DNA of 64,000 nt from Escherichia coli (GTDB lineage: Bacteria; Pseudomonadota; Gammaproteobacteria; Enterobacterales; Enterobacteriaceae): NCBI RefSeq assembly GCF_965641715.1, contig NZ_OZ282453.1. One strand, 5' to 3'. The notes under the pieces were generated by a model. That model was not told the DNA's origin. It ran no database searches and saw nothing but the letters and a program-made list of their open reading frames with translations. Numbering within the stretch: position 1 is the first letter of the stretch; the number at the start of each line of letters is the position of its first letter. This document shows, in pieces, positions 1,706 through 33,316 of this stretch. The position numbers and the translations under genes are program-made.

Positions 1706-3115
1706 CTTCCGCGCCGCCTCATACGCTGCCAACGTTTGTACTCTCGCCTCTTTGTGCTCGACTATCGGTTGCGGATAATCCAGCTTCACACCTGCTTTCT
1801 GCGCCCACTTCCACGGCTCATGCACCGATTTCCCCGGTACATTGCGTAGTTCCGGTAGCCACTGGCGGATAAACTCGCCTTCGCGGTCAAATTTCTCGCC
1901 CTGGGTTGTCGGGTTGAAAATACGAAAATACGGCGCTGCATCAGTACCCGTAGAAGCCGCCCACTGCCAGCCACCGTTATTAGCTGCCAAATCACCATCA
2001 ATCAGCTGCGACATGAAATATCGCTCGCCTTCGCGCCAGTCGATCAATAAATCTTTCACCAGAAAACTGGCTGTAATCATCCGTAGCCGGTTATGCATCC
2101 AGCCAGTGCTATTAAGCTGACGCATGGCAGCATCGACAATCGGGTATCCCGTTTTGCCTTCCTGCCAGGCCTGTAAATGTGCGGGATTGCTCTGCCACTG
2201 CACACGATCCGTCCAGGCAATAAACGGACAATGTTTACACAACGAGGGGTGATACGTTATCAGGTGACGGTAAAACTCGCGCCAGATCAGCTCACTAAGC
2301 CAGACACTACCGGCCCCACCGTCCAGCGCCTGCGGCTGTTCCGCCAACAAGCGATGCAAACACTGGCGAGGCGATAACCCGCCCGTTGCCAGGCTGGCGG
2401 ACAAACGACTGGTGCCTTCCACTGCCGGAAAATCTCGTTGTTGCTCATATTCTCCGGCACCGTTCTGGCAAAACTGGCGTAATTGCGCAATCGCCGCTTT
2501 TTCTTCCACCGGGAAATGCGCAGTATCGAAAGACTGACGAGGATAATTCAGCGTAATGGATGGCGCGGGCTTTATCGATCCGCTACTACGAACTTTTGGT
2601 GCAGCGACGCACTCCGGCATCCCTTCCCGCAGCCGTTTCAGCCAGGCATTCTTAAAAGGCGTAAAGACTTTGTACATCTCATGATTGCCGGTCATCACCG
2701 CGCCAGGCGGCAGGATCACGCTGTCATCAAATCCTTCACACACCACGTTACGCAGCGTTCTCTCAACCTGCACATCCCGCGCCCGCTCATTCACCTCATA
2801 CTGATAGTTATAAAAAAGATGAGTAACGCTGTTTTCCGCGCACACCTGTTTAACTATTTCGACGCTGGCGGCAAAGTCATCCACTTCACGGAACAATAAA
2901 GGAATGCCTTTTTCCGCCAGCGCGATTTGTAGCCCGTTCAGTTGAGCATTGATAAGTTCAGCCTGACGCGGCGACATATTATGCGCCGCCCACTGGCGTG
3001 GTGTAGCGATATACAACGCCAGCACGCGTGCAGACGAATTGCGGCAGGCGGCAGCCAGCGCGAGATTATCATGCAGACGTAAATCCTGGCGAAACCAGAC
3101 CAGATGGGTAGTCAT
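1697..3115 (-). CDS. phr: deoxyribodipyrimidine photolyase (472 aa)
   Basis: ORF begins MTTHLVWFRQDLRLHDN and contains the FAD-binding C-terminal photolyase motifs; its start overlaps the ybgA stop by 4 nt. Confidence 0.95.
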   Translation of the reverse strand: MTTHLVWFRQDLRLHDNLALAAACRNSSARVLALYIATPRQWAAHNMSPRQAELINAQLNGLQIALAEKGIPLLFREVDDFAASVEIVKQVCAENSVTHLFYNYQYEVNERARDVQVERTLRNVVCEGFDDSVILPPGAVMTGNHEMYKVFTPFKNAWLKRLREGMPECVAAPKVRSSGSIKPAPSITLNYPRQSFDTAHFPVEEKAAIAQLRQFCQNGAGEYEQQRDFPAVEGTSRLSASLATGGLSPRQCLHRLLAEQPQALDGGAGSVWLSELIWREFYRHLITYHPSLCKHCPFIAWTDRVQWQSNPAHLQAWQEGKTGYPIVDAAMRQLNSTGWMHNRLRMITASFLVKDLLIDWREGERYFMSQLIDGDLAANNGGWQWAASTGTDAAPYFRIFNPTTQGEKFDREGEFIRQWLPELRNVPGKSVHEPWKWAQKAGVKLDYPQPIVEHKEARVQTLAAYEAARKGK

Positions 3116-4329: not shown

Positions 4330-6002
4330 TGGCTGCGCAAGGGTTCTTACTGATTGCCACGTTTTTACTGGTATTAATGGTGCTGGCGCGTCCTTTAGGC
4401 AGCGGGCTGGCGCGGCTGATTAATGACATTCCTCTTCCAGGTACAGCGGGCGTTGAACGTATACTCTTTCGTTTACTTGGCGTCTCTGACCATGAGATGA
4501 ACTGGAAGCAATATCTTTGTGCCATTCTCGGCCTGAACATGCTGGGGCTGGCGGTGCTGTTTTTTATGTTGCTCGGTCAGCACTATCTGCCGCTTAATCC
4601 ACAGCAGTTGCCGGGGCTGTCGTGGGATCTGGCGCTCAATACCGCCGTCAGCTTTGTCACGAATACCAACTGGCAATCTTATAGCGGTGAAACCACGTTG
4701 AGCTATTTCAGCCAGATGGCGGGCTTAACGGTGCAAAACTTTCTTTCTGCCGCCAGCGGGATTGCGGTGATTTTTGCCCTCATTCGTGCATTTACCCGCC
4801 AGAGCATGAGCACACTCGGGAATGCCTGGGTCGATCTGCTACGCATCACGTTATGGGTGCTCGTCCCTGTGGCGTTGGTGATCGCACTGTTTTTTATTCA
4901 ACAAGGTGCGCTGCAAAACTTTCTGCCCTATCAGGCAGTGAATACCGTTGAAGGAGCGCAACAGCTGTTACCAATGGGTCCGGTGGCTTCTCAGGAAGCG
5001 ATCAAGATGCTCGGTACTAACGGCGGTGGCTTCTTTAATGCCAACTCGTCGCATCCGTTTGAAAACCCAACCGCACTGACCAACTTCGTGCAGATGCTGG
5101 CGATCTTCTTGATCCCAACAGCGCTGTGCTTTGCCTTTGGTGAAGTGACGGGCGATCGCCGCCAGGGGCGCATGTTGCTGTGGGCGATGTCAGTGATTTT
5201 TGTCATCTGCGTAGGCGTGGTGATGTGGGCAGAAGTTCAGGGTAATCCTCATCTGCTGGCGCTCGGCGCAGACAGCAGCATCAATATGGAAGGTAAAGAG
5301 AGCCGTTTCGGCGTGCTGGTCAGTAGCCTGTTTGCGGTCGTGACTACGGCGGCGTCCTGTGGCGCGGTGATTGCGATGCATGATTCGTTTACCGCTCTCG
5401 GTGGCATGGTGCCGATGTGGCTGATGCAAATTGGTGAAGTGGTATTCGGCGGTGTCGGTTCTGGTCTTTACGGCATGATGCTGTTTGTCCTGCTGGCGGT
5501 GTTTATTGCCGGGCTGATGATTGGTCGTACACCGGAATATCTGGGTAAAAAAATCGACGTACGTGAGATGAAACTGACTGCACTGGCGATTCTGGTCACC
5601 CCGACGCTGGTGCTGATGGGCGCGGCGCTGGCAATGATGACCGACGCCGGACGTAGCGCCATGCTCAACCCTGGCCCGCATGGTTTTAGCGAAGTGCTGT
5701 ACGCCGTGTCATCCGCCGCTAACAACAACGGCAGCGCCTTTGCCGGATTAAGCGCCAACTCTCCGTTCTGGAACTGTTTACTGGCGTTCTGCATGTTTGT
5801 CGGTCGCTTCGGAGTGATTATCCCGGTGATGGCAATTGCCGGTTCGCTGGTAAGTAAAAAGAGCCAACCCGCCAGCTCCGGCACGCTGCCAACGCACGGC
5901 CCGCTGTTTGTTGGCCTGTTAATCGGCACCGTGTTGCTGGTTGGCGCACTGACCTTTATCCCTGCCCTGGCGCTTGGTCCGGTGGCGGAATATCTCTCCT
6001 GA
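4329..6002 (+). CDS. kdpA: K+-transporting ATPase subunit A (557 aa)
   Basis: Internal Met [16 protein letters not shown] matches the KdpA N-terminus; the track ORF carries a 48-codon upstream extension. Confidence 0.95.
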
Positions 6003-20417: not shown

Positions 20418-22082
20418 TTACTCGCCAACTTTCGCCCAGGTATCACGCAGCCCAACGGTGCGGTTAAATACCGGTTTTTCGGCAGTGGAATGGCGGCTAT
20501 CGAGGCAGAAGTAACCTTCACGCTCAAACTGGAATGCTTTACCCGCAACCGCATCTTTCAGCGACGGTTCAGCAAAGCCCTGTTTGATCACCAGCGATTC
20601 CGGGTTAATCACCGACAGGAAATCATCCGCAGCACCAGGGTTCGGCACACTGAACAGACGGTCATACAAACGGATTTCAACCGGCAGCGCATGTGCCGCG
20701 CTCACCCAGTGAATAACACCTTTGACTTTACGACCATCTGCCGGATCTTTACTTAAGGTATCGGCGTCATAAGTACAGAAGATGGTGGTGATATTACCTT
20801 CGGCATCTTTCTCGACGCGTTCTGCCTTAATCACATAAGCATTACGCAGACGCACTTCTTTACCGAGCACCAGACGTTTGTACTGCTTGTTAGCTTCTTC
20901 GCGGAAATCGGCGCGATCGATCCAAATCTCACCGCTAAACGGCACCTGACGGCTCCCCATTTCCGGTTTGTTCGGATGGTTCGGCATGGTGACCATTTCG
21001 CCTTCGCCCTGATAGTTTTCGATAACCAGTTTCACCGGATCGATAACCGCCATTGCGCGCGGCGCATTTTCGTTGAGATCTTCACGGATGCAGGATTCCA
21101 GCGACGCCATCTCAATGGTGTTGTCCTGCTTGGTCACGCCGATGCGTTTGCAGAACTCACGAATAGAAGCCGCAGTGTAACCACGACGACGCAGACCGGA
21201 AATGGTCGGCATTCGCGGGTCATCCCAGCCTTCAACGTGCTTGTCGGTCACCAGCAGGTTCAGCTTACGCTTGGACATCACAGTGTATTCCAGATTCAGG
21301 CGCGAGAATTCGTACTGGCGCGGGTGAACAGGAATGGTGATGTTGTCCAGCACCCAGTCGTACAGGCGACGGTTGTCCTGGAACTCAAGCGTACACAGAG
21401 AGTGCGTAATACCTTCCAGCGCATCGCTGATGCAATGGGTGAAGTCGTACATCGGGTAGATGCACCACTTGTTGCCAGTCTGGTGGTGTTCAGCAAATTT
21501 AATGCGGTACAGCACCGGATCGCGCATTACGATAAATGGCGACGCCATGTCGATTTTCGCACGCAGGCAGGCTTTACCTTCTTCAAAACCGCCGGTACGC
21601 ATTTTCTCGAACAGCGCCAGGTTCTCTTCAACGCTACGGTCGCGGTACGGGCTGTTTTTACCAGGCTGCGTCAGGGTGCCGCGGTATTCGCGGATCTGTT
21701 CCGGCGTCAGTTCATCAACGTACGCCAGGCCTTTATTGATCAGTTCGATCGCATAGGCGTGGAGCTGATCAAAATAATCGGAGGAGTAACGGACGTTACC
21801 AGACCAGTGAAAACCTAACCACTCAACGTCGTTTTTGATCGAATCGACATACTCGATATCTTCTTTTACCGGGTTAGTGTCGTCGAAACGCAGGTTGCAC
21901 TGGCCTTTATAGTCCTGGGCGATCCCGAAGTTCAGGCAGATAGATTTCGCATGGCCAATATGCAGATAGCCATTCGGCTCCGGCGGGAAACGGGTGTGTA
22001 CTGTGGTGTGCTTACCACTGGCCAGATCTTCATCGATGATCTGACGAATAAAGTTAGTCGGGCGGGCTTCTGCCTCACTCAT
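20418..22082 (-). CDS. glnS: glutaminyl-tRNA synthetase (554 aa)
   Basis: [17 protein letters not shown]...; class I HIGH (HIGH) and KMSKS-like (VMSKR) motifs. Confidence 0.97.
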
Positions 22083-22301
22083 CGTGGATTCCTCAAAGCG
22101 TAAACAACGTATAACGGCGTATGATCTTATAAGCGGGACAGGCTGACAACTGTTAGTTAGCGAAAAAGTGGTTTTGCGTAAGATATTGGGGCGTTTTCTG
22201 CGCTACAGCCAGCAGATCCTCGCGCTGGAGACGTAAGGCCAAACGTCGCCAGCCTGACGCGTTTATTAAATTTCCGGATGAGCTGGCCGCAGAGTCGTAG
22301 A

Positions 22302-23063
22302 TTAATCCGCTATGATTAAACGCGTCGACAAGGACGCCAGCGTTTTGCGCGTCTGCCCATCAAGCTGATTATCCGTAATAATCTCTGTCAGTTCATTAAG
22401 ATGCGCGATATTAAACAGCGACCATGAACCGTATTTTGAGCTGTCAGCCAGGAGAATTTTGCGCGAAGCATGCGCGATAAGATCGCGTTTTAGTGCGGCT
22501 TTCTCTTCCGTGGGTGCTGTAATACCCTTTTCAAGATCCCAGCTGTTACAGCTTAAAAATGCCACGTCCGGCCAGGTATTTTGCAGCATTTTACGACCAT
22601 GTTCGCCAATGCAGGACTGGCTGGAGTCGTCGATACGTCCGCCGATAATCGTCACTTCAATCTGCTTGAATTCAGCCAAAAAAAGCGCGATATGCAGGTC
22701 GCTGGTGATCACGCGAAGCGGTAAATGGGTAATCTGCCGCGCAAGTTCAATCATTGTCGTACCGGCATCAAGGACGACGGAATCCCCCGCTTTGACCATT
22801 GACGCCGCTGCGCTGGCGATGGCATGTTTTTCCGCCAGGCTGCGCTGCATTTTCTCATGGGTAGTCGGTTGGGTAGGAATAAACCGGTTGAGGGTCACAC
22901 CGCCGTGTGTACGGCTGATAACACCCTGCTCATCGAGTTTTATCAGGTCTCGACGAATCGTGGCCGGCGACGCATTGGTTACCGCCACCAGCTCATCAAC
23001 GGTGACCAGATTATGGCTTTTCAGGTAATCCATGATCTGCTCTAACCGGTTATATCCCTTCAT
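22302..23063 (-). CDS. DeoR/GlpR-family transcriptional regulator (253 aa)
   Basis: N-terminal HTH ([30 protein letters not shown]) and C-terminal DeoR-type sugar-phosphate-binding domain; last gene of a three-gene leftward operon. Confidence 0.8.
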
Positions 23064-23064
23064 T

Positions 23065-24051
23065 TTATTCTCGCGAAATCTGCATTGCTAACTGGATGGA
23101 AACTGCCATGCTCTCAGACTTGGCTTTTCCTGTCCAGGCAATATCAAATGCGGTGCCGTGGTCGGCAGAAGTACGAATAAATGGCAACCCGGCGGTGATA
23201 TTCACCCCATCATAAAATCCAAGCAGTTTTAAAGGGATATGCCCCTGATCGTGGTACATAGCCACCACCATATCGAATAGCCCTTCATGGCACTGCATGA
23301 ACACGGTATCTGGCGGGCACGGGCCAGTAACATCAATATCTTCGGCCTGCATTGCTTCAATCGCAGGTGCGATAATCTCGATTTCCTCAGTGCCGAATAA
23401 ACCGTGTTCCCCTGCATGTGGATTTACACCCGCCACGGCAATACGCGGACGCTCAATACCGACACGTTTCAGGAAGTGGTTCGCAACTCGAATAACCGTT
23501 TTGACCCTTTCACCGTTCAATGTATCCAGGAATTTACGCAGTGAGATGTGAGTCGAAATATGGATAACCTTGAGCTTATCGGTATAGAGCACCATCGCGT
23601 ACTCTTTGCTGCCGGTAAGATGGGCCAGCAATTCCGTATGGCCAGGATAGTTATGCCCGCCAAGATGCAGCGCTTCTTTATTCAACGGCGCAGTGGCTAT
23701 GGCTTTCACCTCGCCTGATAAGGCCAGGGCCGTTGCACGTTTGATACAGCGATACGCTAAATCGCCTGCCGCAGCCTGTACCACTCCGGGTGTCAGCGCA
23801 TCGGGGTTAGCCAGCGGCTCATCCATCACGTTAATCACGCCGGGAGCAAAGTGGGCGTCGCACACCTTTTGAATGACGCGTAACTCTGTCTGCGGCGTGA
23901 TATTCATCGCCATAATACGTCGTAACGTGCGCACACAGCCCACCACCACCACCGGGGCACCAGCAAGCCCGGCTTCGCTCAGGGATTTAATAATGATCTC
24001 CGGGCCAATACCCGCCGGATCGCCCATCGTTACCGCAATAATATTATTCAC
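23065..24051 (-). CDS. PdxA-family NAD-dependent dehydrogenase, PdxA2-like (328 aa)
   Basis: Whole-length resemblance to 4-hydroxythreonine-4-phosphate dehydrogenase ([23 protein letters not shown]); starts 8 nt inside the upstream kinase gene. Confidence 0.75.
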
Positions 24052-25282
24052 TACGCTTCTCCTCGATAAAATTCAGAACCTGATGCAACGTGGTCTCATC
24101 GCCAAACCCACCGGCTTTCGTCATCACCGAACGGGACCAGACGCCGCCCAGAAAGTGACCGTATGGAACGCACTGCGCCACCTTCCCCGTAATACGAAAC
24201 CCGGTCGCACCTAACGCACTGGCTGTTGCCATTGCGACATCGCCACCAGAGAGATAAAGGGCATCAGGGGTGACACGAAGCAGAACTTGCCGGGTAAGTT
24301 CGCCAAGAAACCGGCAAATTTTTTCCCCAAGCGCAGCGCGACTCATCTGCCAACGCTGGCAAAGGGTGTCGATATGGTGCCTTGCTTCAGAATCGGTACA
24401 GGTGTGGACAATGCAGTGGTCCCCTTTCTGTAAGGCCTGCACAATACGCGCGTCATAGCCCCTGGCGTTGCCTGCCAGAATGTGTTCAACATCGACGTAT
24501 ATCTGTGTGATACGTGAGTGTGAATGCAGTGTGGCGATCTGCCGTTGAGCGATTTCGCTCATTGAACCAATAATGGCCAGCACGGTGGGTGGCGGCATAA
24601 TCGCCGAGCGCCGGGCAACGGCATCACAAATACCAGCGGAGCCGACCAGCAGCAGCGGTTGTTTAGCCTGCATCACAGCGGCAGCGATGCAATCCAGGTC
24701 GCTGTCCGTCTGCGCATCCATCACCCCAATCCACGGTTGCTCACGAGACAAATGGCTGAGCTCAGAAACTGTAACGGGCTGGCATGGAATGGCCGTCTGC
24801 AACCGAATGATGTCCGCAATTCGTGCGCTCATTACCGGGGTTTTTGGATCGCTGGCAAACTCGGTTTCCGTTAGCCGCACGCCGTTTACCCGACACTCAC
24901 CGTCCACCGTGGTCCTTCCCACCTGGGGAAATGCGGGGGCAACCACTGCGCCCGTTATGCCGCATGCCTGCATCAGGGCTTCAATTTCTGCGCCGATATT
25001 CCCTCGCAGCGTGGAATCTATCTTTTTAATCATGAGCGGCGGGTTATTCGCCAGAGGGAGATGACTCATCAGCGAGGTCATTTTCATCGCGGCCTGCTTA
25101 GGATCCATCGCCCGACTGTCGCTATTAATCACCCATACGCTTGCATCACCGTGATAAGGCGTTGCAAAGGCCACATCAACCGTATGTCCCACCTGCGCCA
25201 GGCTTACTCCTGCGTCGTTGGCCCCTGTGAAATCATCGGCAACGACGAGAATGCTCGGCTTAGTGATTCCCTTTTCCATCAT
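24044..25282 (-). CDS. four-carbon acid-sugar kinase family protein, DUF1537/OtnK-DtnK-like (about 412 aa)
   Basis: N-terminal hallmark ILVVADDFTGANDAGV; start set at the ATGATG doublet preceded by GGAG (track ORF runs to a TTG at 25321). Confidence 0.7.
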   Translation of the reverse strand: MMEKGITKPSILVVADDFTGANDAGVSLAQVGHTVDVAFATPYHGDASVWVINSDSRAMDPKQAAMKMTSLMSHLPLANNPPLMIKKIDSTLRGNIGAEIEALMQACGITGAVVAPAFPQVGRTTVDGECRVNGVRLTETEFASDPKTPVMSARIADIIRLQTAIPCQPVTVSELSHLSREQPWIGVMDAQTDSDLDCIAAAVMQAKQPLLLVGSAGICDAVARRSAIMPPPTVLAIIGSMSEIAQRQIATLHSHSRITQIYVDVEHILAGNARGYDARIVQALQKGDHCIVHTCTDSEARHHIDTLCQRWQMSRAALGEKICRFLGELTRQVLLRVTPDALYLSGGDVAMATASALGATGFRITGKVAQCVPYGHFLGGVWSRSVMTKAGGFGDETTLHQVLNFIEEKRSE

Positions 25283-25448
25283 CACTCCAGGTTGTTTTAT
25301 GATGACAATGATTATATTCAATCACGATTGATTAAATGTGAGCAAGTTCAAGTTATTAATCACTCGAATAAATTATAAAATTAGGCCATGTTACGTAGAC
25401 AACGGTATTTTGAATGATTGATTTCAATCACGAGAAGAGAGGTTATTT
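25283..25448. promoter_or_regulatory. divergent promoter/operator region of the island
   Basis: AT-rich 166-bp spacer between divergent operons containing TCAATCAC-GATTGATT (25318-25333) and its permuted inverted-repeat form GATTGATT-TCAATCAC (25416-25432). Confidence 0.5.
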
Positions 25449-26606
25449 GTGGTAATTATCAATAGCACGATACTGAGCGGCGCAGGCGCTATCCCTTCCC
25501 TGACGTCGCTCTTACCCGGCGTCAGAAAATTGCTGCTGGTCACAGACAGCAATATTGCGCAGCTTAACGGAGTGCAGCAGATTCGCGCCTTACTGGAAAA
25601 GCACTGCCCGCAGGTGAGCGTTATCGATAATGTGCCTGCAGAGCCTACGCATCATGATGTGCGCCAGCAAATGGCGACCCTCGGCAACGCGTCGTTTGAT
25701 GTAGTAGTGGGCGTCGGCGGCGGCAGCGTGCTGGATGTCGCAAAACTGTTGTCGGTGCTTTGTCACCCCGATTCACCGGGGCTGGATGCGCTGCTTGCCG
25801 GTGAAAAACCGACGCAGCGGGTGCAATCATGGTTGATTCCTACAACCGCCGGTACCGGCTCAGAAGCCACGCCAAATGCGATTCTGGCGATCCCTGAACA
25901 AAGCACGAAGGTGGGTATTATTTCTCCGGTGCTGCTACCGGATTATGTGGCACTTTTCCCCGAGCTGACCACCAGCATGCCCGCACATATTGCAGCGTCT
26001 ACGGGCATTGATGCGCTTTGTCACTTACTGGAGTGTTTTACCGCGACCGTGGCAAATCCGGTCAGCGATAACGCGGCGCTAACCGGGTTAAGTAAGCTTT
26101 TCCGGCATATTCAACCCGCCGTGAACGATCCTCAGGATCTGCGCGCAAAACTGGAAATGCTGTGGGCGTCTTACTATGGCGGCGTAGCGATAACCCATGC
26201 GGGCACGCACCTGGTCCATGCGCTCTCCTACCCGTTAGGCGGCAAATATCACCTGCCGCACGGTGTGGCGAATGCCATCTTGCTGGCACCGTGCATGGCG
26301 GTTGTTCGCCCCTGGGCGGTCGAGAAATTTGCCCAGGTCTGGGATTGCATTCCCGATGCGGATACATCCTTGAGCGCGGAAGAGAAATCTCACGCTCTGG
26401 TGGCCTGGCTACAGGCATTAGTCAATCAACTCAAGCTGCCCAACAATCTCGCGGATCTTGGCGTACCGCCAGATGATATTACGTCTCTTAGCGCGGCGGC
26501 ACTGAACGTGAAGCGCCTGATGAACAATTCCCCCTGCCAACTGAATCAGCGGGACGTGCAGGCCATTTACCAAACGCTGTTTCCGCAACATCAATTTAAG
26601 GAGTAA
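25449..26606 (+). CDS. iron-containing (group III) alcohol dehydrogenase (385 aa, GTG start)
   Basis: GGGS NAD(P)-binding motif (VVGVGGGSVLDVAKL) and His-rich metal site (HALSYPLGGKYHLPHG); RBS agagagg upstream. Confidence 0.75.
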   Translation: MVIINSTILSGAGAIPSLTSLLPGVRKLLLVTDSNIAQLNGVQQIRALLEKHCPQVSVIDNVPAEPTHHDVRQQMATLGNASFDVVVGVGGGSVLDVAKLLSVLCHPDSPGLDALLAGEKPTQRVQSWLIPTTAGTGSEATPNAILAIPEQSTKVGIISPVLLPDYVALFPELTTSMPAHIAASTGIDALCHLLECFTATVANPVSDNAALTGLSKLFRHIQPAVNDPQDLRAKLEMLWASYYGGVAITHAGTHLVHALSYPLGGKYHLPHGVANAILLAPCMAVVRPWAVEKFAQVWDCIPDADTSLSAEEKSHALVAWLQALVNQLKLPNNLADLGVPPDDITSLSAAALNVKRLMNNSPCQLNQRDVQAIYQTLFPQHQFKE

Positions 26607-26609
26607 ATC

Positions 26610-27497
26610 ATGCCAAAAACCATTGAAGGTGTATTAACCGCCATCGTCACCCCGTTTACCGCGACCGGCGTCCTGAATCTCCCGGCGTTAAAAGTGCAGG
26701 TTAATCGCCAACTGGAAGCCGGTAACGCGATTTTTTGCGGCGGCACCAACGGCGAGTTTTTTGTGTTGAACGAACAGGAGAAGCTCAGCGTTACGCAAAC
26801 CTGCGTGGATGAAGTGGCTGGCCGCGCACCGGTCGTGGCGCACATTGGTGAGATCTCGACGCGCGAAACCATTCGTCTGGGTCAGCAGATTGAAAAACTG
26901 GGCGTTGATGCGGTATCGGTCATTACCCCGTACTTTGTACCGCTAAAACAGGAAGAGCTGATTGCCCATTACACCGCAATTGCCGACGCACTAAGCATTC
27001 CCATGTTTCTCTATAACATCCCGGCCCGCACCGGCAATACGATTCAGCCGGAAACCGCGCGCGCTCTGGCGTCGCATCCCAATATCATTGGGATTAAAGA
27101 CAGCGCCGGAAGCTACGAAAGCCTGAAGGGTTTTCTCGATGCTGTGCGCAACATTGACGGCTTTAATGTGCTCAACGGCCCGGATTCGCTGATCCATAAA
27201 GGGTTTGTCGAGGGGTGTTCAGCCTGTATTTCCGGGCTCGCCAACGTCGCGCCGCGAGAAATCAATGCCATCTGGTCTCGCTTCCATGCCGGTGATATTG
27301 AAGGATCGTATCAGGCACAGGAGAGTGTGACTGGCCTGCGTACCGATCTTTATAAAGTAGCATTCTCCCCAGCTGCGGTGAAAAAAGCGTTGCAGCTTAT
27401 GGGGCATGATGTTGGTGATAGCCGCTACGCGGTTAATTTCACGCCTGAACAGATCAGCGAGATTCAACAAATTATTCGTCATTATCACATTAATTAA
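26610..27497 (+). CDS. DapA/NanA-family Schiff-base aldolase/lyase (295 aa)
   Basis: GVLTAIVTPF N-terminal motif, GGTNGEF, and Schiff-base lysine context IIGIKDSAG; starts 3 nt after the ADH stop. Confidence 0.75.
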   Translation: MPKTIEGVLTAIVTPFTATGVLNLPALKVQVNRQLEAGNAIFCGGTNGEFFVLNEQEKLSVTQTCVDEVAGRAPVVAHIGEISTRETIRLGQQIEKLGVDAVSVITPYFVPLKQEELIAHYTAIADALSIPMFLYNIPARTGNTIQPETARALASHPNIIGIKDSAGSYESLKGFLDAVRNIDGFNVLNGPDSLIHKGFVEGCSACISGLANVAPREINAIWSRFHAGDIEGSYQAQESVTGLRTDLYKVAFSPAAVKKALQLMGHDVGDSRYAVNFTPEQISEIQQIIRHYHIN

Positions 27498-27556
27498 ATT
27501 AACTCTATTATCCAGCCCGCTATAACGTATAGATAAAGAGAATAAAGGATTACCCC

Positions 27557-28315
27557 ATGTTTTTGTGGTTTATGCAGCCAGATATCTGGCTCACTTTAAT
27601 TACCCTCACCTTTCTGGAAATTATTCTCGGGGTGGATAATATTATTTTTCTTTCACTGGTGGTGGCAAAACTTCCGTTATCACAACAAAATATGGCGCGT
27701 AAACTGGGTTTAAGCTGCGCGATGATTATGCGGATATTATTGCTGATATCCATTGCGTGGCTTTCACATATTACCCAGCCGCTTTTTACCGTGCTGGCGC
27801 TGGAGATTTCGTTCCGCACGTTGATTCTACTCGGGGGCGGGCTGTTCCTGATTTATAAAGCGATACAGGAGATACGCGAAGAGTTGTCGCCCGCGCAGGA
27901 AGACGCGCATGGCAGCGGGTCGCGGCAGCTGTCGCTGTGCGGTGCTATCGTACAGATAATGCTGCTGGATATTGTGTTCAGCCTGGACTCGGTGATCACC
28001 GCCGTCGGCCTTTCTCAGCATATATTTATTATGATTGCTGCCGTCATGATTGCCGTTGGCATCATGATGTTTGCGGCGAAAACCATTGGTGACTTCGTGA
28101 ACGCGACGCCATCGATAAAAATACTGGCGTTAACCTTTTTATTATTTGTCGGCGTATTGTTGGTTGCCGATAGCCTCAATATTCATATTGCCAAAGAGTA
28201 TCTCTACTTCGCGATATTTTTCTCATTAAGCGTGGAGACACTCAATATTTTCCGTGAAAGAAGACATAAAAAAGTTTCGACATCGATCGAAACGCATGAA
28301 TCGAACTCGCATTAA
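27557..28315 (+). CDS. TerC-family integral membrane protein (252 aa)
   Basis: About seven hydrophobic helices with two DN/DS-type motifs (LGVDNIIFLSL, FSLDSVITAVG) typical of TerC/YgdQ-like proteins. Confidence 0.55.
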   Translation: MFLWFMQPDIWLTLITLTFLEIILGVDNIIFLSLVVAKLPLSQQNMARKLGLSCAMIMRILLLISIAWLSHITQPLFTVLALEISFRTLILLGGGLFLIYKAIQEIREELSPAQEDAHGSGSRQLSLCGAIVQIMLLDIVFSLDSVITAVGLSQHIFIMIAAVMIAVGIMMFAAKTIGDFVNATPSIKILALTFLLFVGVLLVADSLNIHIAKEYLYFAIFFSLSVETLNIFRERRHKKVSTSIETHESNSH

Positions 28316-28350
28316 TAAATCTATTACCGACTTTAAGATGGAGTCTAACT

Positions 28351-29520
28351 ATGTCTGTAGCTCTTATTCGTGACGGCGTCATCCGTCCGTCCGAAAATGA
28401 TTCGCATGTGCTTACCGCCATGCTGCCCTCGTCCTGCCCGCAAAACCACGCGGCGAATATTCTGCCTTTGCCGGATGGCGCGTTAATGTGCGTCTGGTTT
28501 GCGGGAACGCAGGAAGGTATTGCCGATATTTCCGTCTGGGGATCGCGGCTGCCCGCTGGCGGAACGCAGTGGAGCGATGCGGTCAAACTGTCCCACGATG
28601 ACACGCGTTCAGAGCAGAACCCGGTACTGTTTCTCGCACCGGATAACGTGCTGTGGCTGCTATGGACCGCACAAATATCCGGTAATCAGGACACCGCCAT
28701 CGTCCGCTACCGTAAGTCAGACGACCTCGGACAAACCTGGGGCGAGATTGCCACGCTGCTCGATAAACCCGGCACGTTCATTCGCCAGCCGATCACGGTG
28801 CTTGATAACGGCAACTGGCTGCTGCCCGTCTTTTATTGCCGTACCCAACCCGGTGAAAAATGGGTCGGCAATGATGATATCAGCGCAGTGAAAATTTCCG
28901 CTGACGGTGGTCACTCATGGCGCGATGTCGAGGTGCCGCAAAGTCTCGGCTGCGTTCATATGAATATCACAATGCTGCACGACGGTACGTTGGCTGCTCT
29001 CTTTCGCAGCCGTTGGGCAGACAACATCTATATCAGCCATTCTGCGGACCACGGCGAGAGCTGGTCGGTGCCGCAAGCAACCGAACTGCCCAACAACAAT
29101 TCGTCTATTCAGGTGACGACGCTTGCCAGCGGTGAGCTGGCGCTGGTGTACAACGCAATGAGTGCGGCAGGCGCAGTAGAACGTCGCGCGTCGCTGTATG
29201 ACGAAATCGACGATGGCGACGACAGTCGCAAAGAACCCACAGCCGTTGGACGCTCCGCTTTCTGGGGTGCCCCGCGCGCGCCGATGACGGTAGCGATTTC
29301 TGCCGATGGCGGGAAAAGCTGGCCGTGGCGGCGCAATCTCGATGAAGGCGATGGCTACTGCATGACCAACAATTCGCTGGAAAAGCTAAATCGCGAGTTC
29401 TCCTACCTCAGTATCAAACAAAGCCCGGACGGTACGCTGCATATCGCTTACACCTGGTGGCGTCAGGCCATCAAGTACGTGCGCATCTCCCCCGAGTGGG
29501 TTAAGGGGCAGGCATTATGA
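28351..29520 (+). CDS. BNR/Asp-box repeat sialidase-like protein, predicted cytoplasmic (389 aa)
   Basis: Four S-x-D-x-G-x-[TS]-W Asp-boxes (SDDLGQTW, SADGGHSW, SADHGESW, SADGGKSW); N-terminal IRP (FRIP-like); no signal peptide. Confidence 0.75.
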   Translation: MSVALIRDGVIRPSENDSHVLTAMLPSSCPQNHAANILPLPDGALMCVWFAGTQEGIADISVWGSRLPAGGTQWSDAVKLSHDDTRSEQNPVLFLAPDNVLWLLWTAQISGNQDTAIVRYRKSDDLGQTWGEIATLLDKPGTFIRQPITVLDNGNWLLPVFYCRTQPGEKWVGNDDISAVKISADGGHSWRDVEVPQSLGCVHMNITMLHDGTLAALFRSRWADNIYISHSADHGESWSVPQATELPNNNSSIQVTTLASGELALVYNAMSAAGAVERRASLYDEIDDGDDSRKEPTAVGRSAFWGAPRAPMTVAISADGGKSWPWRRNLDEGDGYCMTNNSLEKLNREFSYLSIKQSPDGTLHIAYTWWRQAIKYVRISPEWVKGQAL

Positions 29521-29987
29521 TTATCGGGAATCTCAACCATTTGTCACAGGCGGGGCTTCCCGCTGGCGTGAAAAATATTCTGCTGCGCCCGGAATGTTCG
29601 TTACGGGCGTTATCCGCCAGAGAGGACGGTCGCTGGCAACTGGAAGGATGCCGGTGGTTCTGCACGCTGGGCCTTTCAGACACGCAGCCCGCCGATCTCC
29701 GGCATACGGAGTATCACCATCTGTGGGCCGATATTCAGGTGGTGATTGCCGGTTGTGAGGGCATTAATGCGGGGACGCGGCCCGTAGCGCAGGAAAGCGA
29801 TGAAGAACGTAAGCCCGATCTGTTTATCGCCCCATCCCCTGAAAACAGTGTCGCAATCACCTTACACCCCGGTGATTTCGCCGTCTTTATGCCAGAAGAA
29901 CCCCATCAGGCGCTGTGCGCGGTTGGCGCGGCCACGTCAGTACGTAAAGCGGTCTTTAAGGTACCGCGCGACATGCTGGAAGCCTAA
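29517..29987 (+). CDS. YhcH/YjgK/YiaL (DUF386) family protein (156 aa)
   Basis: Size and N-terminal pattern (MIIGNLNHLSQAGLP...) typical of the DUF386 family found in sialic-acid and beta-galactoside operons; ATGA overlap with the BNR gene. Confidence 0.65.
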   Translation: MIIGNLNHLSQAGLPAGVKNILLRPECSLRALSAREDGRWQLEGCRWFCTLGLSDTQPADLRHTEYHHLWADIQVVIAGCEGINAGTRPVAQESDEERKPDLFIAPSPENSVAITLHPGDFAVFMPEEPHQALCAVGAATSVRKAVFKVPRDMLEA

Positions 29988-30000
29988 AAGGAGAGAAAAA

Positions 30001-31281
30001 ATGACAATGGAAATGATCCTGGCATTAGGAATACTGGTCCTGATGATCGTGCTGATCATGTCGGACAAAATGCCCTTTGGCGCACCGCCACTGCTTGCGT
30101 GTTTATTGCTGGTTGTCTCGGGGCTGTCGACGGTTCAACAGGCTTTTGCCGGATTCGTCAATCCAAGCGTGGTGATGATTGCAGGGTTTATGGTGGTGAT
30201 GGCTGCGCTACAAAAAACCCGGCTTATCAGCAACGTTAAATCTGCGATGATAAGCCTGGTCAATAAAGGCAGTTACCGCAGTTATGGGCTGTTGTTAGTC
30301 ATCGTTATGCTGGGCGCCAGTCTTGCCGGCACCGGCGCGACGGGTTATTACGTGCTGATTCTGTCTCTGGTATCCACCATTCCGTACAGTAAAAAGCTAC
30401 CAACATCGAAATTGATGATGCCACTGGGATTTGCCACCAACCATCCGCTTCTTCCTATCAATCTCGCGCTTCTCTTTGGCGTCACGGCGACCGTACTCGA
30501 AACAGCCGGTTTTCATCAGGAGATTTCGATGGGGCGCTTTGCGCTGGTGAATCTCGTCATGTCAGCGGCTTTTCTGGCGTGGAGTCTGATTGCCTACCGT
30601 TTTCTTCCGGATCATCCCATTGCGGATGCTTCCGAGGATGCGCTGGCCGCACGCGAAGAAACGTTTAACGCCCTTCCTGCCTGGAAAGAGTATTGCACCA
30701 TCGCCGCATTCGCCGTCAGCGTTATCGGCATGATGCTGATGAATATGCTGGGTAATATCGCCTTCGTTATTCCAGGCCTTGCGGGTGCGTTTGTTCTGAT
30801 GATCGATGTACTGGACTTTAAAGAAGTTCGCGATCATATGGGGGCACCGGTCATTTTAATGATGGCGGGGGTGATCGGTGTGGCTGATGCGCTGGCTGGC
30901 ACCGGCTTTACGGCAATGGTAGGCGATGCCGTTGCAGGTGTGCTCGGGTCTGGCGTCTCACCGTTTGTATTTATTGTCGCCTTTGCTTTACTTACCAGTA
31001 CCTGCGCCACCTTCACGGGTTCGAATATGGGGTCAGTCTATATTTTTGCCCCCATCGCCATTGCCGCCTGTACTAGCCTTGGGCTTAACCCGACCGCTGC
31101 CGCGATTGCGGTGGTGATTTCTGGCTGGAATGGCGGCTATATGCCTATTGACGGAATGCCAGCCATGATCCTCGGAATGGGGAAATACAAACTTCCCGAA
31201 TTCTGGGTGTTCTCTGTACCAATGTATCTCATCCGCATTCTGGCGCTTTGTGCAGGCGCTGTTTTTATCTTCCCAATGTAA
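30001..31281 (+). CDS. anion permease of the ion-transporter superfamily, GntP/CitMHS-like (426 aa)
   Basis: ATG at 30001 preceded by aaaggagag; 10-12 hydrophobic segments with two-repeat architecture; the track ORF (29800) carries a spurious upstream extension. Confidence 0.6.
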   Translation: MTMEMILALGILVLMIVLIMSDKMPFGAPPLLACLLLVVSGLSTVQQAFAGFVNPSVVMIAGFMVVMAALQKTRLISNVKSAMISLVNKGSYRSYGLLLVIVMLGASLAGTGATGYYVLILSLVSTIPYSKKLPTSKLMMPLGFATNHPLLPINLALLFGVTATVLETAGFHQEISMGRFALVNLVMSAAFLAWSLIAYRFLPDHPIADASEDALAAREETFNALPAWKEYCTIAAFAVSVIGMMLMNMLGNIAFVIPGLAGAFVLMIDVLDFKEVRDHMGAPVILMMAGVIGVADALAGTGFTAMVGDAVAGVLGSGVSPFVFIVAFALLTSTCATFTGSNMGSVYIFAPIAIAACTSLGLNPTAAAIAVVISGWNGGYMPIDGMPAMILGMGKYKLPEFWVFSVPMYLIRILALCAGAVFIFPM

Positions 31282-31290
31282 TCTCAGACA

Positions 31291-31326
31291 AAAAAAGCGG
31301 CAGAGAAGATCCCTGCCGCTTTTTAT
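31291..31326. terminator. bidirectional intrinsic terminator at the island/nagE junction
   Basis: aaaaaagcggcagagaagatccctgccgcttttt: 7-bp GC stem flanked by an A-run and a T-run. Confidence 0.7.
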
Positions 31327-31369: not shown

Positions 31370-33316
31370 TTACTTTTTGATTTCATACAGCGGTGTTTGA
31401 CCCGCCACAACATGGCCCTGAGCTTTAATGATCAAGCCACTGAAATCGTCGATATTACTGCAAACCACTGGGCTAATCATCGAGCGGGCGTTAGCGTTCA
31501 GGTAATCCAGATCCATTTCCAGAATCGGTTGTCCTGCGCTTACCTGCGCGCCCTCTTCCACCAGACGTTTAAAGCCTTTACCTTCCAGCGCTACGGTATC
31601 GATACCCATATGGACGACGATCTCCGCGCCTTTTTCGGTTTCCAGGCAGAACGCGTGGTTGGTGTTGAAGATTTTCACGATTGTCCCTGCGGCTGGTGAT
31701 ACGACGATTTTATCTGTCGGTTTCACCGCCACACCGTCACCCACTGCTTTGCTGGCGAATGCTTCGTCAGGAACCTGATCCAGTGCCACGACATCACCGG
31801 TAATCGGCGATACCAGCTCCGCGATAGATACCGCGTTTGGTACAGCCTGCGGTTTTGCTACAGGAGCGGCAGTTGCCGGAGTTGCTTCAGCAGAGGCAGC
31901 TGCTACCGGGCCACGGGCAACGACTTTCTTCATCGCATCGCCGATGGATTCTGCTTTCGCGCCAACAATCACCTGAATAGTCTGTTTGTTCAGTTTTACT
32001 ACACCAGAAGCACCCAGACGTTTACACATCGTATCGTTAACGCGGGCAGAGTCAGCCACTGTAAGGCGCAGACGGGTGATACAGGCGTCAATTGCTTTCA
32101 GGTTGTCAGTGCCGCCAACCGCAGCAATATAGTTGGTCGCCAGTTGATTGAGGCCTTCTTCAGTGTTGCTGTTGGCTTCTTCAGTAACGATCTCGTCTTC
32201 TTTATCTTCACGACCCGGCGTTTTCAGGTTGAACATGCGGATAACCAAACTGAACACCACGAAGTAGATAGCGAAGAAGACAACACCCATCACCAGCAGC
32301 ATCCAGACGTTCTGGCTGGCGGCCGGCAGGTTATACATCAACGCGTAGTCGATAGCCCCCGCAGAGAAAGAGAAGCCGGCATGGATACCCAGCAGCGTTG
32401 CCACAAACAGGCTGATACCGGTCAGCAGTGCGTGCAGGAGGTACAGCAGCGGTGCAAGGAACATGAACAGGAATTCCAGCGGCTCAGTCACACCGGTCAG
32501 GAACGCAGTAACAGCAACAGAAAGCAGCATCCCGCCAACCATCGGACGACGCTCTTTCGGTGCTGCGAAGTACATCGCCAGCGCCGCCCCCGGCAGACCG
32601 AACATCATGATCGGGAAGAAGCCGGACATGAACATCCCCGCGGTGCCGTCACCGGCATAGAAGCGGTTGATATCACCGTGGAAAACCGTACCCGCCGCGT
32701 TGGTGAATTCACCAATCTGGAACCAGGCGATGGTGTTCAGCACCTGATGCAGACCGGTTGGGATCAGCAGACGGTTGATGAAACCAAAGATACCGGAACC
32801 CAGCGCGCCCGCAGAAACGATCCACTCGCCGCCTGCATGGATAGCGTGCTGTACCGGCGGCCAGACGTAACCAAAAATGGCCGCCAGCACCAGACAGAAG
32901 AAGCCGGTGGCGATCGGCACAAAGCGTTTGCCGCCGAAGAAGCTCAGGAAGTCCGGCAGTTTAATATCGGACCAACGGTTATAGGCTGCGCCACCAACCA
33001 GACCGGTAATGATACCCGCCAGTACACCCATGTTAATTTCTGGGTTGATGGTCACCATCGCTTTGGTTAACACAAAGTAACCTACCGCACCCGCCAGCGC
33101 CGCCGCACCTGCGCTGTCTTTCGACCAGCTGGATGCCACACCGATGGCGAAGATTAATGCGAGGTTATCAAAAATCGCACCGCCCGCCTGGGCAATAAAC
33201 GCAACGTTAAGTAAATCTGGCTGACCGAATCGCAGCAACAGTGCCGCCACCGGCAGCACCGCGATAGGGAGCTGTAACGCCCTACCGAGTCGCTGGAAAA
33301 AACCTAAAATATTCAT
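31370..33316 (-). CDS. nagE: PTS N-acetylglucosamine-specific EIICBA component (648 aa)
   Basis: MNILGFFQRLGRALQLPIAVLP...; EIIC membrane domain, EIIB cysteine region, EIIA C-terminus. Confidence 0.96.
   Translation of the reverse strand: MNILGFFQRLGRALQLPIAVLPVAALLLRFGQPDLLNVAFIAQAGGAIFDNLALIFAIGVASSWSKDSAGAAALAGAVGYFVLTKAMVTINPEINMGVLAGIITGLVGGAAYNRWSDIKLPDFLSFFGGKRFVPIATGFFCLVLAAIFGYVWPPVQHAIHAGGEWIVSAGALGSGIFGFINRLLIPTGLHQVLNTIAWFQIGEFTNAAGTVFHGDINRFYAGDGTAGMFMSGFFPIMMFGLPGAALAMYFAAPKERRPMVGGMLLSVAVTAFLTGVTEPLEFLFMFLAPLLYLLHALLTGISLFVATLLGIHAGFSFSAGAIDYALMYNLPAASQNVWMLLVMGVVFFAIYFVVFSLVIRMFNLKTPGREDKEDEIVTEEANSNTEEGLNQLATNYIAAVGGTDNLKAIDACITRLRLTVADSARVNDTMCKRLGASGVVKLNKQTIQVIVGAKAESIGDAMKKVVARGPVAAASAEATPATAAPVAKPQAVPNAVSIAELVSPITGDVVALDQVPDEAFASKAVGDGVAVKPTDKIVVSPAAGTIVKIFNTNHAFCLETEKGAEIVVHMGIDTVALEGKGFKRLVEEGAQVSAGQPILEMDLDYLNANARSMISPVVCSNIDDFSGLIIKAQGHVVAGQTPLYEIKK

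Follow-up and report, generated by a model that had tools for sequence, protein, structure and literature searches.

In a 64,000-nucleotide stretch of Escherichia coli DNA (the window), the minus-strand operon dtnK-pdxA2-regulator runs toward the essential gene glnS, with no intrinsic terminator between them. It makes up the right-hand arm of a catabolic island that is already known and was acquired horizontally. We propose that the operon is controlled by the DeoR-family protein that it encodes, that the DNA between the operon and glnS derives from a truncated LysR-family gene, and that Rho releases part of the RNA polymerase that leaves the operon while the remainder continues into glnS. Taken as a whole, this is the best explanation that we have, and we consider it somewhat probable.

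The first gene of the operon, dtnK (24044–25279, minus strand), encodes a two-domain four-carbon acid-sugar kinase and is annotated as D-threonate kinase. It has two adjacent potential start codons, ATGs at 25282 (taken as the start in the original prediction) and 25279, and its stop codon ends at 24044. The second ATG (giving 411 amino acids) is RefSeq's choice in other strains with identical architecture, and the motif GGAG lies 5 nt upstream of it. DtnK scores 531.7 bits against the NCBIfam model for D-threonate kinase (NF047819; cut-off 450 bits) and just 108.8 bits against the model for 3-oxo-tetronate kinase (cut-off 350 bits). The protein contains an N-terminal sugar-binding domain (SBD_N, E = 4.8e-54) and a C-terminal nucleotide-binding domain (NBD_C, E = 6.5e-31), its closest sequence in the PDB is 4xfm (E = 2e-91), and dtnK is the RefSeq name for this gene in syntenic E. 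coli. The kinase is reported to be only ~40% identical to the characterized DtnK of Salmonella (PMC12928451).

The second gene, pdxA2 (23065–24051, minus strand), starts with GTG and is annotated as D-threonate 4-phosphate dehydrogenase. PdxA2 aligns over its full length (1–326 of 326) to NCBIfam model NF002891 with 680.9 bits (cut-off 583 bits) and contains Pfam's PdxA domain; its gene adjoins the DUF1537 kinase gene. Based on the annotations of these equivalog models, DtnK would phosphorylate D-threonate and PdxA2 would oxidatively decarboxylate the product to DHAP. DtnK, from the DUF1537 kinase family, and PdxA2 are reportedly a catabolic pair for D-threonate (Zhang et al. 2016, PNAS; Thiaville et al. 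2016, ACS Chem Biol, the second of which PMC12928451 cites). The same two-enzyme module is found here, encoded by adjacent, overlapping genes with a DeoR-type regulator in the cluster. Unlike the known pair, the module here is always linked to a divergent operon with a DHDPS-type aldolase and an Fe-ADH.

The last gene of the operon (22302–23063, minus strand) encodes a transcription regulator of the DeoR/GlpR family, with an HTH_DeoR domain (PF08220, E = 2.7e-19) and a C-terminal DeoRC sensor domain (PF00455, E = 6.1e-48). Because this regulator is under the cut-off of all of the named NCBIfam equivalogs (AgaR, YgbI, GlpR, and others), we describe it as an unnamed member of the family.

These three genes form one tightly packed unit. 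As the original prediction stated, the stop of dtnK and the start of pdxA2 overlap by 8 nt (24044–24051, GTGAATAA), and about 1 nt separates the end of pdxA2 from the regulator gene: the TAA of pdxA2 ends at 23065 and the ATG of the regulator gene is at 23063 (TAAaATG). A Shine-Dalgarno sequence, GAGGAG, lies 7 nt upstream of the GTG at 24051. Both junctions are near-identical, base by base, in ~45 enterobacterial genomes from other genera, and the overlap and the 1-nt gap are present in nearly all of the Enterobacteriaceae loci. The junctions fit the translational coupling that was originally suggested. Given their conservation, translation of pdxA2 would start at the GTG that overlaps the dtnK stop, behind the GAGGAG, and the regulator would be translated by re-initiation 1 nt past the pdxA2 stop.

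The region upstream of dtnK contains two putative operators. Both are palindromic and conserved, they are separated by 104 to 106 bp, and one of them covers a likely −10 element. Box O1 (25307–25327; minus-strand sequence TCGTGATTGAATATAATCATT), from the 21-nt repeat family D1, holds a perfect TATAAT at 25316–25311. This is likely the −10 of the dtnK promoter; there is no clear −35 beside it. Box O2 (25413–25433; minus-strand sequence TCGTGATTGAAATCAATCATT) has the core palindrome TGATTGA-aa-TCAATCA, lies 106 bp from O1, and is next to where the divergent Fe-ADH operon begins. O1 is at the same position in 25 of the 26 loci from other genera that we examined, and the spacing from O1 to O2 is 104 to 106 bp (~ten helical turns) in 20/26 loci with both boxes (at most 5 mismatches). 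We infer that the boxes are operators for the DeoR-family protein, with half-sites TGATTGAA..TTCAATCA. The three genes would then be a single transcription unit, and the −10 of its promoter would lie within a palindromic operator of 16 bp. By binding both boxes, the DeoR-family protein probably represses each arm of the island as well as its own gene, and an intermediate of the pathway, for example 4-phospho-D-threonate, probably releases it.

Several features of this proposal resemble the deo, glp, and aga regulons of E. coli, which are controlled by DeoR-family repressors. The combination of HTH_DeoR and DeoRC is common to those repressors and to the regulator here, and the two 16-bp palindromic boxes ~ten helical turns apart recall DeoR, which loops DNA between multiple operators and has the palindrome TGTTAGAA.TTCTAACA. 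In contrast to these regulons, the half-site here is different (TGATTGAA), and the protein scores below the cut-off of each named equivalog. We also considered that the boxes might be binding sites for CRP, whose consensus has 6 nt between half-sites. On inspection, the GTGA and TCAC are 10 nt apart, so the spacing is wrong.

The island as a whole (22171–31296, ~9.1 kb) lies between nagE and glnS and corresponds to the accessory region c0757–c0765 of the UPEC strain CFT073. Its plus strand encodes an Fe-ADH, a DHDPS-family aldolase, TerC, a BNR_2 sialidase-family protein, YhcH, and a SLC13/DASS permease, and its minus strand encodes dtnK-pdxA2-regulator. (We asked if the BNR_2 protein could be a 3-deoxy-lyxo-heptulosaric acid hydrolase of family GH143 and rejected this, as there is no sequence likeness; there are just weak matches to the sialidase NanC.) In site and gene order, c0757–c0765 is the same island as GR 6 (nagE..glnS) of APEC BEN2908. 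GR 6 was catalogued in PMC12928451 and the c0757–c0765 region in PMC2831201, with the genes given as uncharacterised; these papers do not discuss the glnS junction, the LysR relic, or termination.

Of 5426 complete E. coli genomes, 1048 carry the island; it invariably occupies the site from nagE to glnS, and the arrangement is uninterrupted in every one of the 1048. The same cluster is found in 50 loci from other species, in different contexts. Compared to each of those 1048 E. coli copies, the window's copy has an identity of just ~97 to 98%. The right-hand junction of the island is at 22167–22171, ~18 to 22 bp upstream of the −35 of glnS: megablast alignments to island-less genomes begin at 22166 or 22158, and the junction alignments (A1 and A2) share TTTTC(A/G)CTAACTAACAG. 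There is no integrase among the nine ORFs of the island, which all have roles in metabolism, transport, or regulation. Nor is the insertion site a tRNA gene, and inspection of alignments A1 and A2 showed no repeats at either junction.

The gene downstream of the operon, glnS (20418–22082, minus strand; TIGR00440, 1068 bits), encodes glutamine--tRNA ligase. It was originally described as starting ~220 bp past the regulator gene on the same strand, in a spacer with no clear hairpin plus T-run. Both statements were borne out. The untranslated spacer, from the regulator's stop (ending at 22302) to the ATG of glnS at 22082, is 219 nt (22083–22301), and a terminator scan of its minus strand lists no terminator. 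In a second score, which combines hairpin energy with the T-tail, the best values in the spacer are d = −30 to −44, as compared to +46 for the nagE terminator and +19 for the glnS terminator (20218–20198; +36 in a variant run); this score uses d'Aubenton-Carafa coefficients and is calibrated just on terminators within the 64-kb window. Both scans detect the nagE and glnS terminators, which are our positive controls. An intrinsic terminator is absent between the regulator gene and glnS. This is not unusual, as 9 of the 17 same-strand neighbor pairs in the window likewise lack one. We rejected the hairpin GCUGGcGACGU-UUGGCCUU-ACGUCuCCAGC (22253–22224, minus strand; ~−19 kcal/mol with flanks) as a terminator: no U-run follows it, it scores d = −44, and its sequence is a remnant of LysR coding sequence.

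Comparison to other genera suggests where the spacer came from. A convergent gene lies tail-to-tail (−4 to +13 nt) with the regulator gene in Pseudocitrobacter, Citrobacter, Enterobacter, Klebsiella, and others. In many cases this gene encodes a yneJ-like LysR regulator and is next to an aldehyde dehydrogenase gene. When the spacer is compared by blastn to these loci, it matches inside the intact convergent LysR gene, and tblastn with the LysR proteins of two of the loci (L050 and L025) finds fragments in the spacer. The relic of the yneJ-like gene spans 22195–22300 on the plus strand. Within it, 22195–22227 encodes 11 residues that correspond to amino acids 64–74 of the intact LysR gene, 22226–22282 encodes WRRKAKRRQPDAFIKFPDE (~amino acids 267–284), and the stop codon TAG at 22298–22300 is 1 nt from the regulator's stop. 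Judging from these matches, the E. coli spacer is the decayed remnant of the convergent LysR gene. In the ancestral arrangement, the regulator gene would have been tail-to-tail against the convergent gene, as it still is in other genera. The Escherichia island would have been cut within the LysR gene, leaving a relic of ~105 nt with a large internal deletion, which would have been joined ~20 bp upstream of the −35 of glnS. Our proposal explains why there is no terminator before glnS, as the spacer would be what is left of a decayed gene that was formerly convergent with the operon.

The spacer appears to be under no sequence constraint. It is ~80% identical, with indels, to the copy in Escherichia sp. 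MOD1-EC7003, as compared to 97.5% for the adjacent gene and 93.7% for the regulator gene at third codon positions, which the spacer outpaces in its rate of change. The hairpin at 22253–22224 varies by one-sided substitutions alone, and its outer pair is lost in MOD1-EC7003. The fold of the whole spacer is no more stable than those of shuffled sequences (z = 0.11). A search of 21900–25600 against Rfam with a permissive threshold gave a single match, which was at chance level and inside the regulator gene, so no known RNA element is present. All six reading frames of the spacer are interrupted by stops. Among E. coli strains, the spacer is 96 to 99% identical.

In K-12, the nagE terminator lies ~110 bp upstream of the ATG of glnS and ~60 bp upstream of the −35, and it is followed by AT-rich DNA. 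Here, in contrast, the LysR relic takes that position, and the nagE terminator (31297–31319) is kept at the left (far) end of the island. It is usable in both directions: read along with the convergent SLC13 permease gene it scores d = +21, and read along with nagE it scores +46. By this comparison, the strong terminator that shields glnS in K-12 stayed with nagE, 9.1 kb from glnS. From 22158 to the ATG of glnS, the window is identical to K-12, including the promoter, the leader, and the ribosome-binding site (Shine-Dalgarno GAGG at 22094–22091). The promoter (22121–22149, minus strand) comprises a −35 of TTGTCA (22149–22144), a 17-nt spacer, and a −10 of GATCAT (22126–22121), which includes a Dam GATC site; it matches the consensus at 9 of 12 positions. 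We take this to be the mapped, Dam-sensitive glnS promoter reported by Plumbridge and Soll (1987; reference 71 in PMC6681230).

Read-through of operon transcription into glnS is plausible given this arrangement. RNA polymerase that moves past the regulator's stop would meet 219 nt of untranslated RNA, which includes a C-rich, G-poor stretch (22113–22208, minus strand) that spans the island junction and the promoter and leader of glnS. This rut-like stretch could load Rho: 78-nt windows that start from 22208 to 22184 have C/G ratios of 2.0 to 2.67 (the 99th percentile across the whole window is 2.08), and the spacer contains untranslated, C-rich, G-poor RNA of the length expected for Rho (at least ~80 nt). 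Some of the polymerase would probably be released there, and the rest would cross the glnS promoter into glnS. The effect on the level of GlnRS is probably small because the glnS promoter is constitutive and the operon would be repressed in ordinary conditions. Concern for an essential gene also seems weak because read-through would add glnS mRNA with an intact leader and ribosome-binding site; extra transcription of glnS is unlikely to be harmful.

ChIP data for RNA polymerase from CFT073 in rich medium with glucose (PMC9765446) give signals of 0.44 for dtnK, 1.05 for pdxA2, 2.23 for the regulator gene, and 4.08 for glnS; these are gene averages and are not strand-specific. Signals for the left arm of the island are 0.32 to 0.53. 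As gene averages, the low signals on the left arm and on dtnK fit a repressed state in glucose. Our simple model does not predict that the signal should climb along the operon toward glnS without induction. The rise may be spill-over from the peak at the glnS promoter, an unrecognised internal promoter, or antisense transcription. A search for an internal sigma-70 promoter in pdxA2 or the regulator gene gave just weak matches. The ChIP values were the sole experimental data that our literature search turned up; for strains with the island, it yielded no transcript map that separates the strands, and data sets from K-12 do not include this junction.

Alternatively, glnS might be insulated from the island, with Rho ending essentially all operon transcripts in the spacer or the leader so that induction leaves glnS transcription unchanged. 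The long untranslated RNA past the regulator's stop and the C/G ratios between 22208 and 22113, which reach above the window's 99th percentile, are what such insulation would need. Furthermore, no hairpin terminator can have ended the operon in the donor arrangement either; its transcripts must have stopped within RNA antisense to the convergent gene, which is typical Rho territory. Against this, the spacer begins with 90 nt that are rich in G and structured. Also, the C-rich stretch stops ~30 nt short of the ATG of glnS, so release would occur inside the glnS leader or the early coding region, where ribosomes that start at the intact ribosome-binding site can protect the transcript. We consider insulation of this kind to be unlikely, although it is the most serious competitor of partial release by Rho.

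At the other extreme, read-through might be substantial and physiologically meaningful. In the island-bearing (mostly B2) E. coli, synthesis of GlnRS would then in part follow induction of the sugar-acid island, or incoming polymerase would occlude the glnS promoter. There is no intrinsic terminator to stop it; the edge of the island is ~20 bp from the −35, with the AT-rich upstream DNA and the terminator of K-12 replaced; the ChIP signal does not drop from the regulator gene to glnS; and no island-bearing complete genome has an interruption. However, the ChIP values are limited as described above, expression of the operon is likely to be weak given that it forms the repressed arm of an accessory locus and ends in the regulator gene, and the spacer shows no constraint. 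Also, excess GlnRS reportedly mischarges tRNA only with overproduction at plasmid level (Swanson et al. 1988), which counts against strong read-through. Overall, strong read-through seems very improbable. Equally improbable is the related idea that, in about a fifth of E. coli, the arrival of the island rewired how glnS is transcribed, with the terminator and AT-rich DNA lost and inducible read-through or occlusion gained.

Finally, a function for the spacer itself (as a small RNA, a small protein, a hairpin for processing or stability, or a weak non-canonical terminator at 22253–22224) might be suggested by the ~−19 kcal/mol hairpin and by the identity among E. coli strains, but we give it very little credence, as the hairpin lacks a U-tract, the broken reading frames, unexceptional fold, and lack of an Rfam match point the other way, the divergence from MOD1-EC7003 far exceeds that of the adjacent gene, and LysR coding remnants account for the sequence.

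The annotations of the genes were already known, and the island was already catalogued in E. coli. What is new is the conservation of the junctions and of the operator-like boxes in ~45 genomes, the tail-to-tail LysR arrangement elsewhere, the LysR-relic spacer, and the fate of the nagE terminator. In one sense this is of little importance, as the genes are annotated, the island is catalogued, and hairpin-less boundaries between same-strand genes are common. If rewiring were true, then the level of GlnRS in B2/ExPEC strains would respond to the island's substrate, and strong read-through would provide a naturally occurring example in which an aminoacyl-tRNA synthetase is regulated in a strain-specific way. 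The loss of glnS insulation would be historical, due to a truncated convergent gene, rather than adaptive, and it cleanly illustrates how a segment acquired by horizontal transfer can strip a housekeeping gene of its upstream insulation. For this uncharacterised, ExPEC-associated island, our analysis offers a concrete regulatory model, in which there are two conserved putative operators, the last gene of the operon encodes a repressor that regulates itself, and translation is coupled.

On the minus strand of the window, nagE (33316..31370) is followed by the ~9.1-kb accessory island, then glnS (22082..20418), and then chiP. The final three genes of the block ahead of glnS are dtnK, pdxA2, and a regulator gene (25279..22302). 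The dtnK gene, which ends at 24044, encodes a two-domain DUF1537-type kinase that scores 531.7 bits against the NCBIfam equivalog for D-threonate kinase (cut-off 450). The PdxA-family protein aligns end-to-end with NCBIfam's D-threonate 4-phosphate dehydrogenase (680.9 bits, cut-off 583). The regulator (253 amino acids) has a DeoR-type HTH domain and a DeoRC sensor domain. RefSeq annotates the same trio in syntenic E. coli genomes as dtnK, D-threonate 4-phosphate dehydrogenase, and a DeoR/GlpR family regulator. Of the two adjacent ATGs at the kinase start, the original prediction used the first (25282); RefSeq takes the second, whose spacing from GGAG is better.

The kinase and PdxA-like genes do overlap, as had been claimed: pdxA2 starts with a GTG at 24051 and the kinase ORF ends at 24044, so GTGAATAA is common to both genes. 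GAGGAG lies 7 nt upstream of the GTG. One nucleotide separates the end of the pdxA2 stop (23065) from the regulator's ATG (23063), which agrees with the gap of about 1 nt that had been described. Searching with the regulator protein against one genome per species yielded 52 loci, from Enterobacter, Citrobacter, Klebsiella, Leclercia, Kosakonia, Phytobacter, Pseudocitrobacter, and others, plus Vibrio litoralis. Nearly all of these have an aldolase and an iron-dependent alcohol dehydrogenase on one strand and kinase-pdxA2-regulator on the opposite strand. Both junctions are conserved near base-for-base across the loci (GAGGAG-N7-GTGAnTAA and TAAnATG). Judging from this comparison, the tight packing of the operon is more than chance, and the proposed translational coupling seems reasonable.

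The left-arm genes (25449-31281, plus strand) are divergent from the operon (22302-25279, minus strand). The intergenic region (166 bp, 31% G+C) contains two near-identical 21-nt boxes, 106 bp apart, each based on the palindrome TGATTGAA..TTCAATCA. The box that adjoins dtnK holds a perfect TATAAT (25316-25311), and this TATAAT-containing box is present in 25 of the 26 loci from other genera that we examined. Both boxes, at a spacing of 104 to 106 bp and with up to 5 mismatches, are present in 20 of the 26. We infer that the boxes are putative operators of the encoded DeoR-family protein. Their size and symmetry recall the 16-bp operator of DeoR, whose family often loops between operators. We also considered CRP sites, but the half-site spacing is wrong.

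In the window and in the loci L009-L054, an aldolase of the DHDPS/NanA/YagE family and the iron-dependent alcohol dehydrogenase are always divergently linked to dtnK-pdxA2-regulator. Often linked as well are a YhcH anomerase-like protein, a cytoplasmic BNR_2 sialidase-family protein, and a transporter that varies (SLC13/DASS, SSF or MFS). This gene content suggests a pathway in which a 2-keto-3-deoxy acid sugar would be converted to pyruvate and a 4-carbon aldehyde-acid, and the latter to D-threonate and then to DHAP. We speculate that the sugar is DHA (3-deoxy-D-lyxo-heptulosaric acid, from pectin RG-II): by stereochemical reasoning, aldol cleavage and aldehyde reduction of DHA would give exactly D-threonate. 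We found no paper in the literature that describes DHA catabolism, and the BNR_2 protein does not match the solved DHA hydrolase family in sequence. If the DHA route is true, it would be a natural source for D-threonate.

Of 5426 complete E. coli genomes, 1048 have the island between nagE and glnS, and the regulator-glnS spacer is uninterrupted in all of them. In CFT073, the island is c0757-c0765 and glnS is c0766. A 2010 comparative study classed c0757-c0765 as UPEC-associated (PMC2831201). A 2026 paper reports nagE..glnS as an uncharacterised region, GR 6, that is common to BEN2908, APEC O1, RS218, IHE3034, CFT073, and LF82 (PMC12928451). Neither paper discusses the junction with glnS. The operon is an uncharacterised member of a known operon kind, within a catalogued island. 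None of the 1048 complete-genome copies exceeds 97.7% identity to the island in the window, although the window's glnS is 99.6% identical to that of K-12. The regulator gene is 97.9% identical to its counterpart on a contig of a "Citrobacter sp." gut MAG and 97.5% identical to that of Escherichia sp. MOD1-EC7003, so the two are about equally distant. Together, these identities suggest a distinct allele of the island or recombination at the locus. Between its glnS and chiP, CFT073 carries an IS200C transposase gene (4808-5266 of its locus, L005) that neither the window nor SCU-485 has.

The original prediction put the end of the regulator gene about 220 bp before glnS, with no clear hairpin and T-run between them. 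The distance is 219 nt (stop ending at 22302, ATG at 22082), and neither terminator search found a terminator in the spacer (22083-22301). A consensus scan reported no terminator-like site on its minus strand. We also applied a discriminant (d) that combines hairpin energy and the T-tail to every hairpin end in the region. It used d'Aubenton-Carafa coefficients and was calibrated only on terminators within the window (d = +46 for nagE and +19 to +36 for glnS). The best hairpins in the spacer had d = -30 to -44. The spacer's fold was no more stable than that of shuffled sequence (z = 0.11), and the spacer matched no Rfam family. The absence of a terminator between these genes is not unusual: in the window, 9 of 17 same-strand neighbor pairs (gaps of 50 to 700 nt) lack a positive-scoring site, in a survey with crude gene calls and some true operon partners.

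Given the short distance and the lack of an intrinsic terminator, read-through from the operon into glnS is plausible. The glnS leader and ribosome-binding site would be complete in such transcripts, so read-through would add to GlnRS synthesis and would not harm the gene. Swanson et al. are said to have found in 1988 that excess GlnRS causes mischarging only at large overproduction. Occlusion of the glnS promoter by incoming polymerase could also offset the gain, so we expect a small net effect. It is possible that glnS is insulated by Rho acting on the untranslated, C-rich transcript: 219 nt would be untranslated, and C/G ratios of 2.0 to 2.67, which exceed the window's 99th percentile, occur in 78-nt segments that start between 22208 and 22184. 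RNA with high C/G has a composition associated with Rho loading. However, the C/G-high stretch ends ~30 nt before the glnS start codon, and ribosomes at the intact glnS ribosome-binding site could shield read-through transcripts. Read-through into glnS is probably inconsequential, and physiologically meaningful coupling of the operon and glnS is very unlikely.

The one experimental resource that we found for this question is RNAP beta ChIP from CFT073 in glucose rich defined medium, given as gene-averaged, non-strand-specific IP/input (PMC9765446, Data set S1). These values were 0.32 to 0.53 for c0757-c0762, 0.44 for dtnK, 1.05 for pdxA2, 2.23 for the regulator gene, and 4.08 for glnS. The low signal in dtnK and the left arm fits with repression. 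Across the uninduced operon, the signal climbs stepwise toward glnS (c0763-c0766, or 25279-20418 in the window). Three sources could account for the climb: signal spreading from the peak at the glnS promoter, a weak promoter within the operon that serves the regulator, or antisense transcription; we found no convincing sigma-70 match inside pdxA2 or the regulator gene. H-NS bound strongly in CFT073 to the TerC-family gene midway along the left arm (c0760; window 27557-28315; IP/input of 26.1) and was raised at the adjoining aldolase gene (c0761; window 26610-27497; 6.4), with background levels on the remaining island genes. Among the versions of the cluster, only those of Escherichia, Klebsiella, Kluyvera, and Pseudocitrobacter have TerC, which suggests that it was inserted into the left-arm operon later.

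The spacer itself is a gene relic, which would account for its lack of a terminator. We scored the downstream neighbor of the regulator gene in 44 loci from other species: in almost all, it is an ORF on the opposite strand that starts -4 to +13 nt from the regulator's stop. In Citrobacter youngae and Pseudocitrobacter vendiensis, a 290-amino-acid LysR-family regulator, very like E. coli YneJ, lies near there, and a divergent aldehyde dehydrogenase comes after it. Using blastn against these loci, the E. coli spacer matches within that LysR gene. Using tblastn with the LysR proteins, we found two plus-strand pieces: 22195-22227 (amino acids 64-74, 11/11 identical) and 22226-22282 (WRRKAKRRQPDAFIKFPDE, about amino acids 267-284). 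The second piece continues to a TAG (22298-22300), one nucleotide off the regulator's stop. So the spacer is the original tail-to-tail junction plus a decayed LysR gene, which by these alignments is missing ~190 internal codons as well as its first ~60 codons. MOD1-EC7003 has the same regulator-spacer-glnS order. Identity is 97.5% for the regulator genes (93.7% at third codon positions) but falls to ~80%, with indels, for the island-derived part of the spacer; this divergence fits unconstrained pseudogene DNA.

The window's alignment to island-less genomes begins only at 22166 or 22158. When K-12, O157, and SCU-313 are aligned with the window, the right island junction falls at ~22167-22171, and 18 to 22 bp separate it from the downstream glnS -35 (TTGTCA, 22149-22144; the -10 is GATCAT, 22126-22121). 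Just before the -35, K-12 has AT-rich, UP-element-like DNA (GATTATCAATTTTAAAAAACTAACAG; 2960-3010 of its locus, L002), and the island puts CGCAAAACCACTTTTTCGCTAACTAACAG in its place (window 22150-22200). A third variant occurs in O157 and SCU-313, both of which lack the island. Because of these lineage variants, glnS promoter strength may differ, independent of read-through.

In K-12, the nagE stop is followed by a REP-like hairpin, a strong terminator, ~50 bp of AT-rich DNA, and the glnS promoter. In the window, the nagE terminator remains beside nagE (31297-31319), where it doubles as the terminator of the convergent SLC13 permease gene, which lies at the left end of the island; in the permease direction it scores d = +21. 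So the left arm finishes at a terminator that works both ways, and the right arm has nothing at its end. We propose that a horizontally acquired catabolic island was cut within the convergent LysR gene and came to rest against the glnS promoter, and that the resident terminator stayed at the island's other end. The real content of the operon/glnS arrangement would then be historical, from the truncation and landing of the island.
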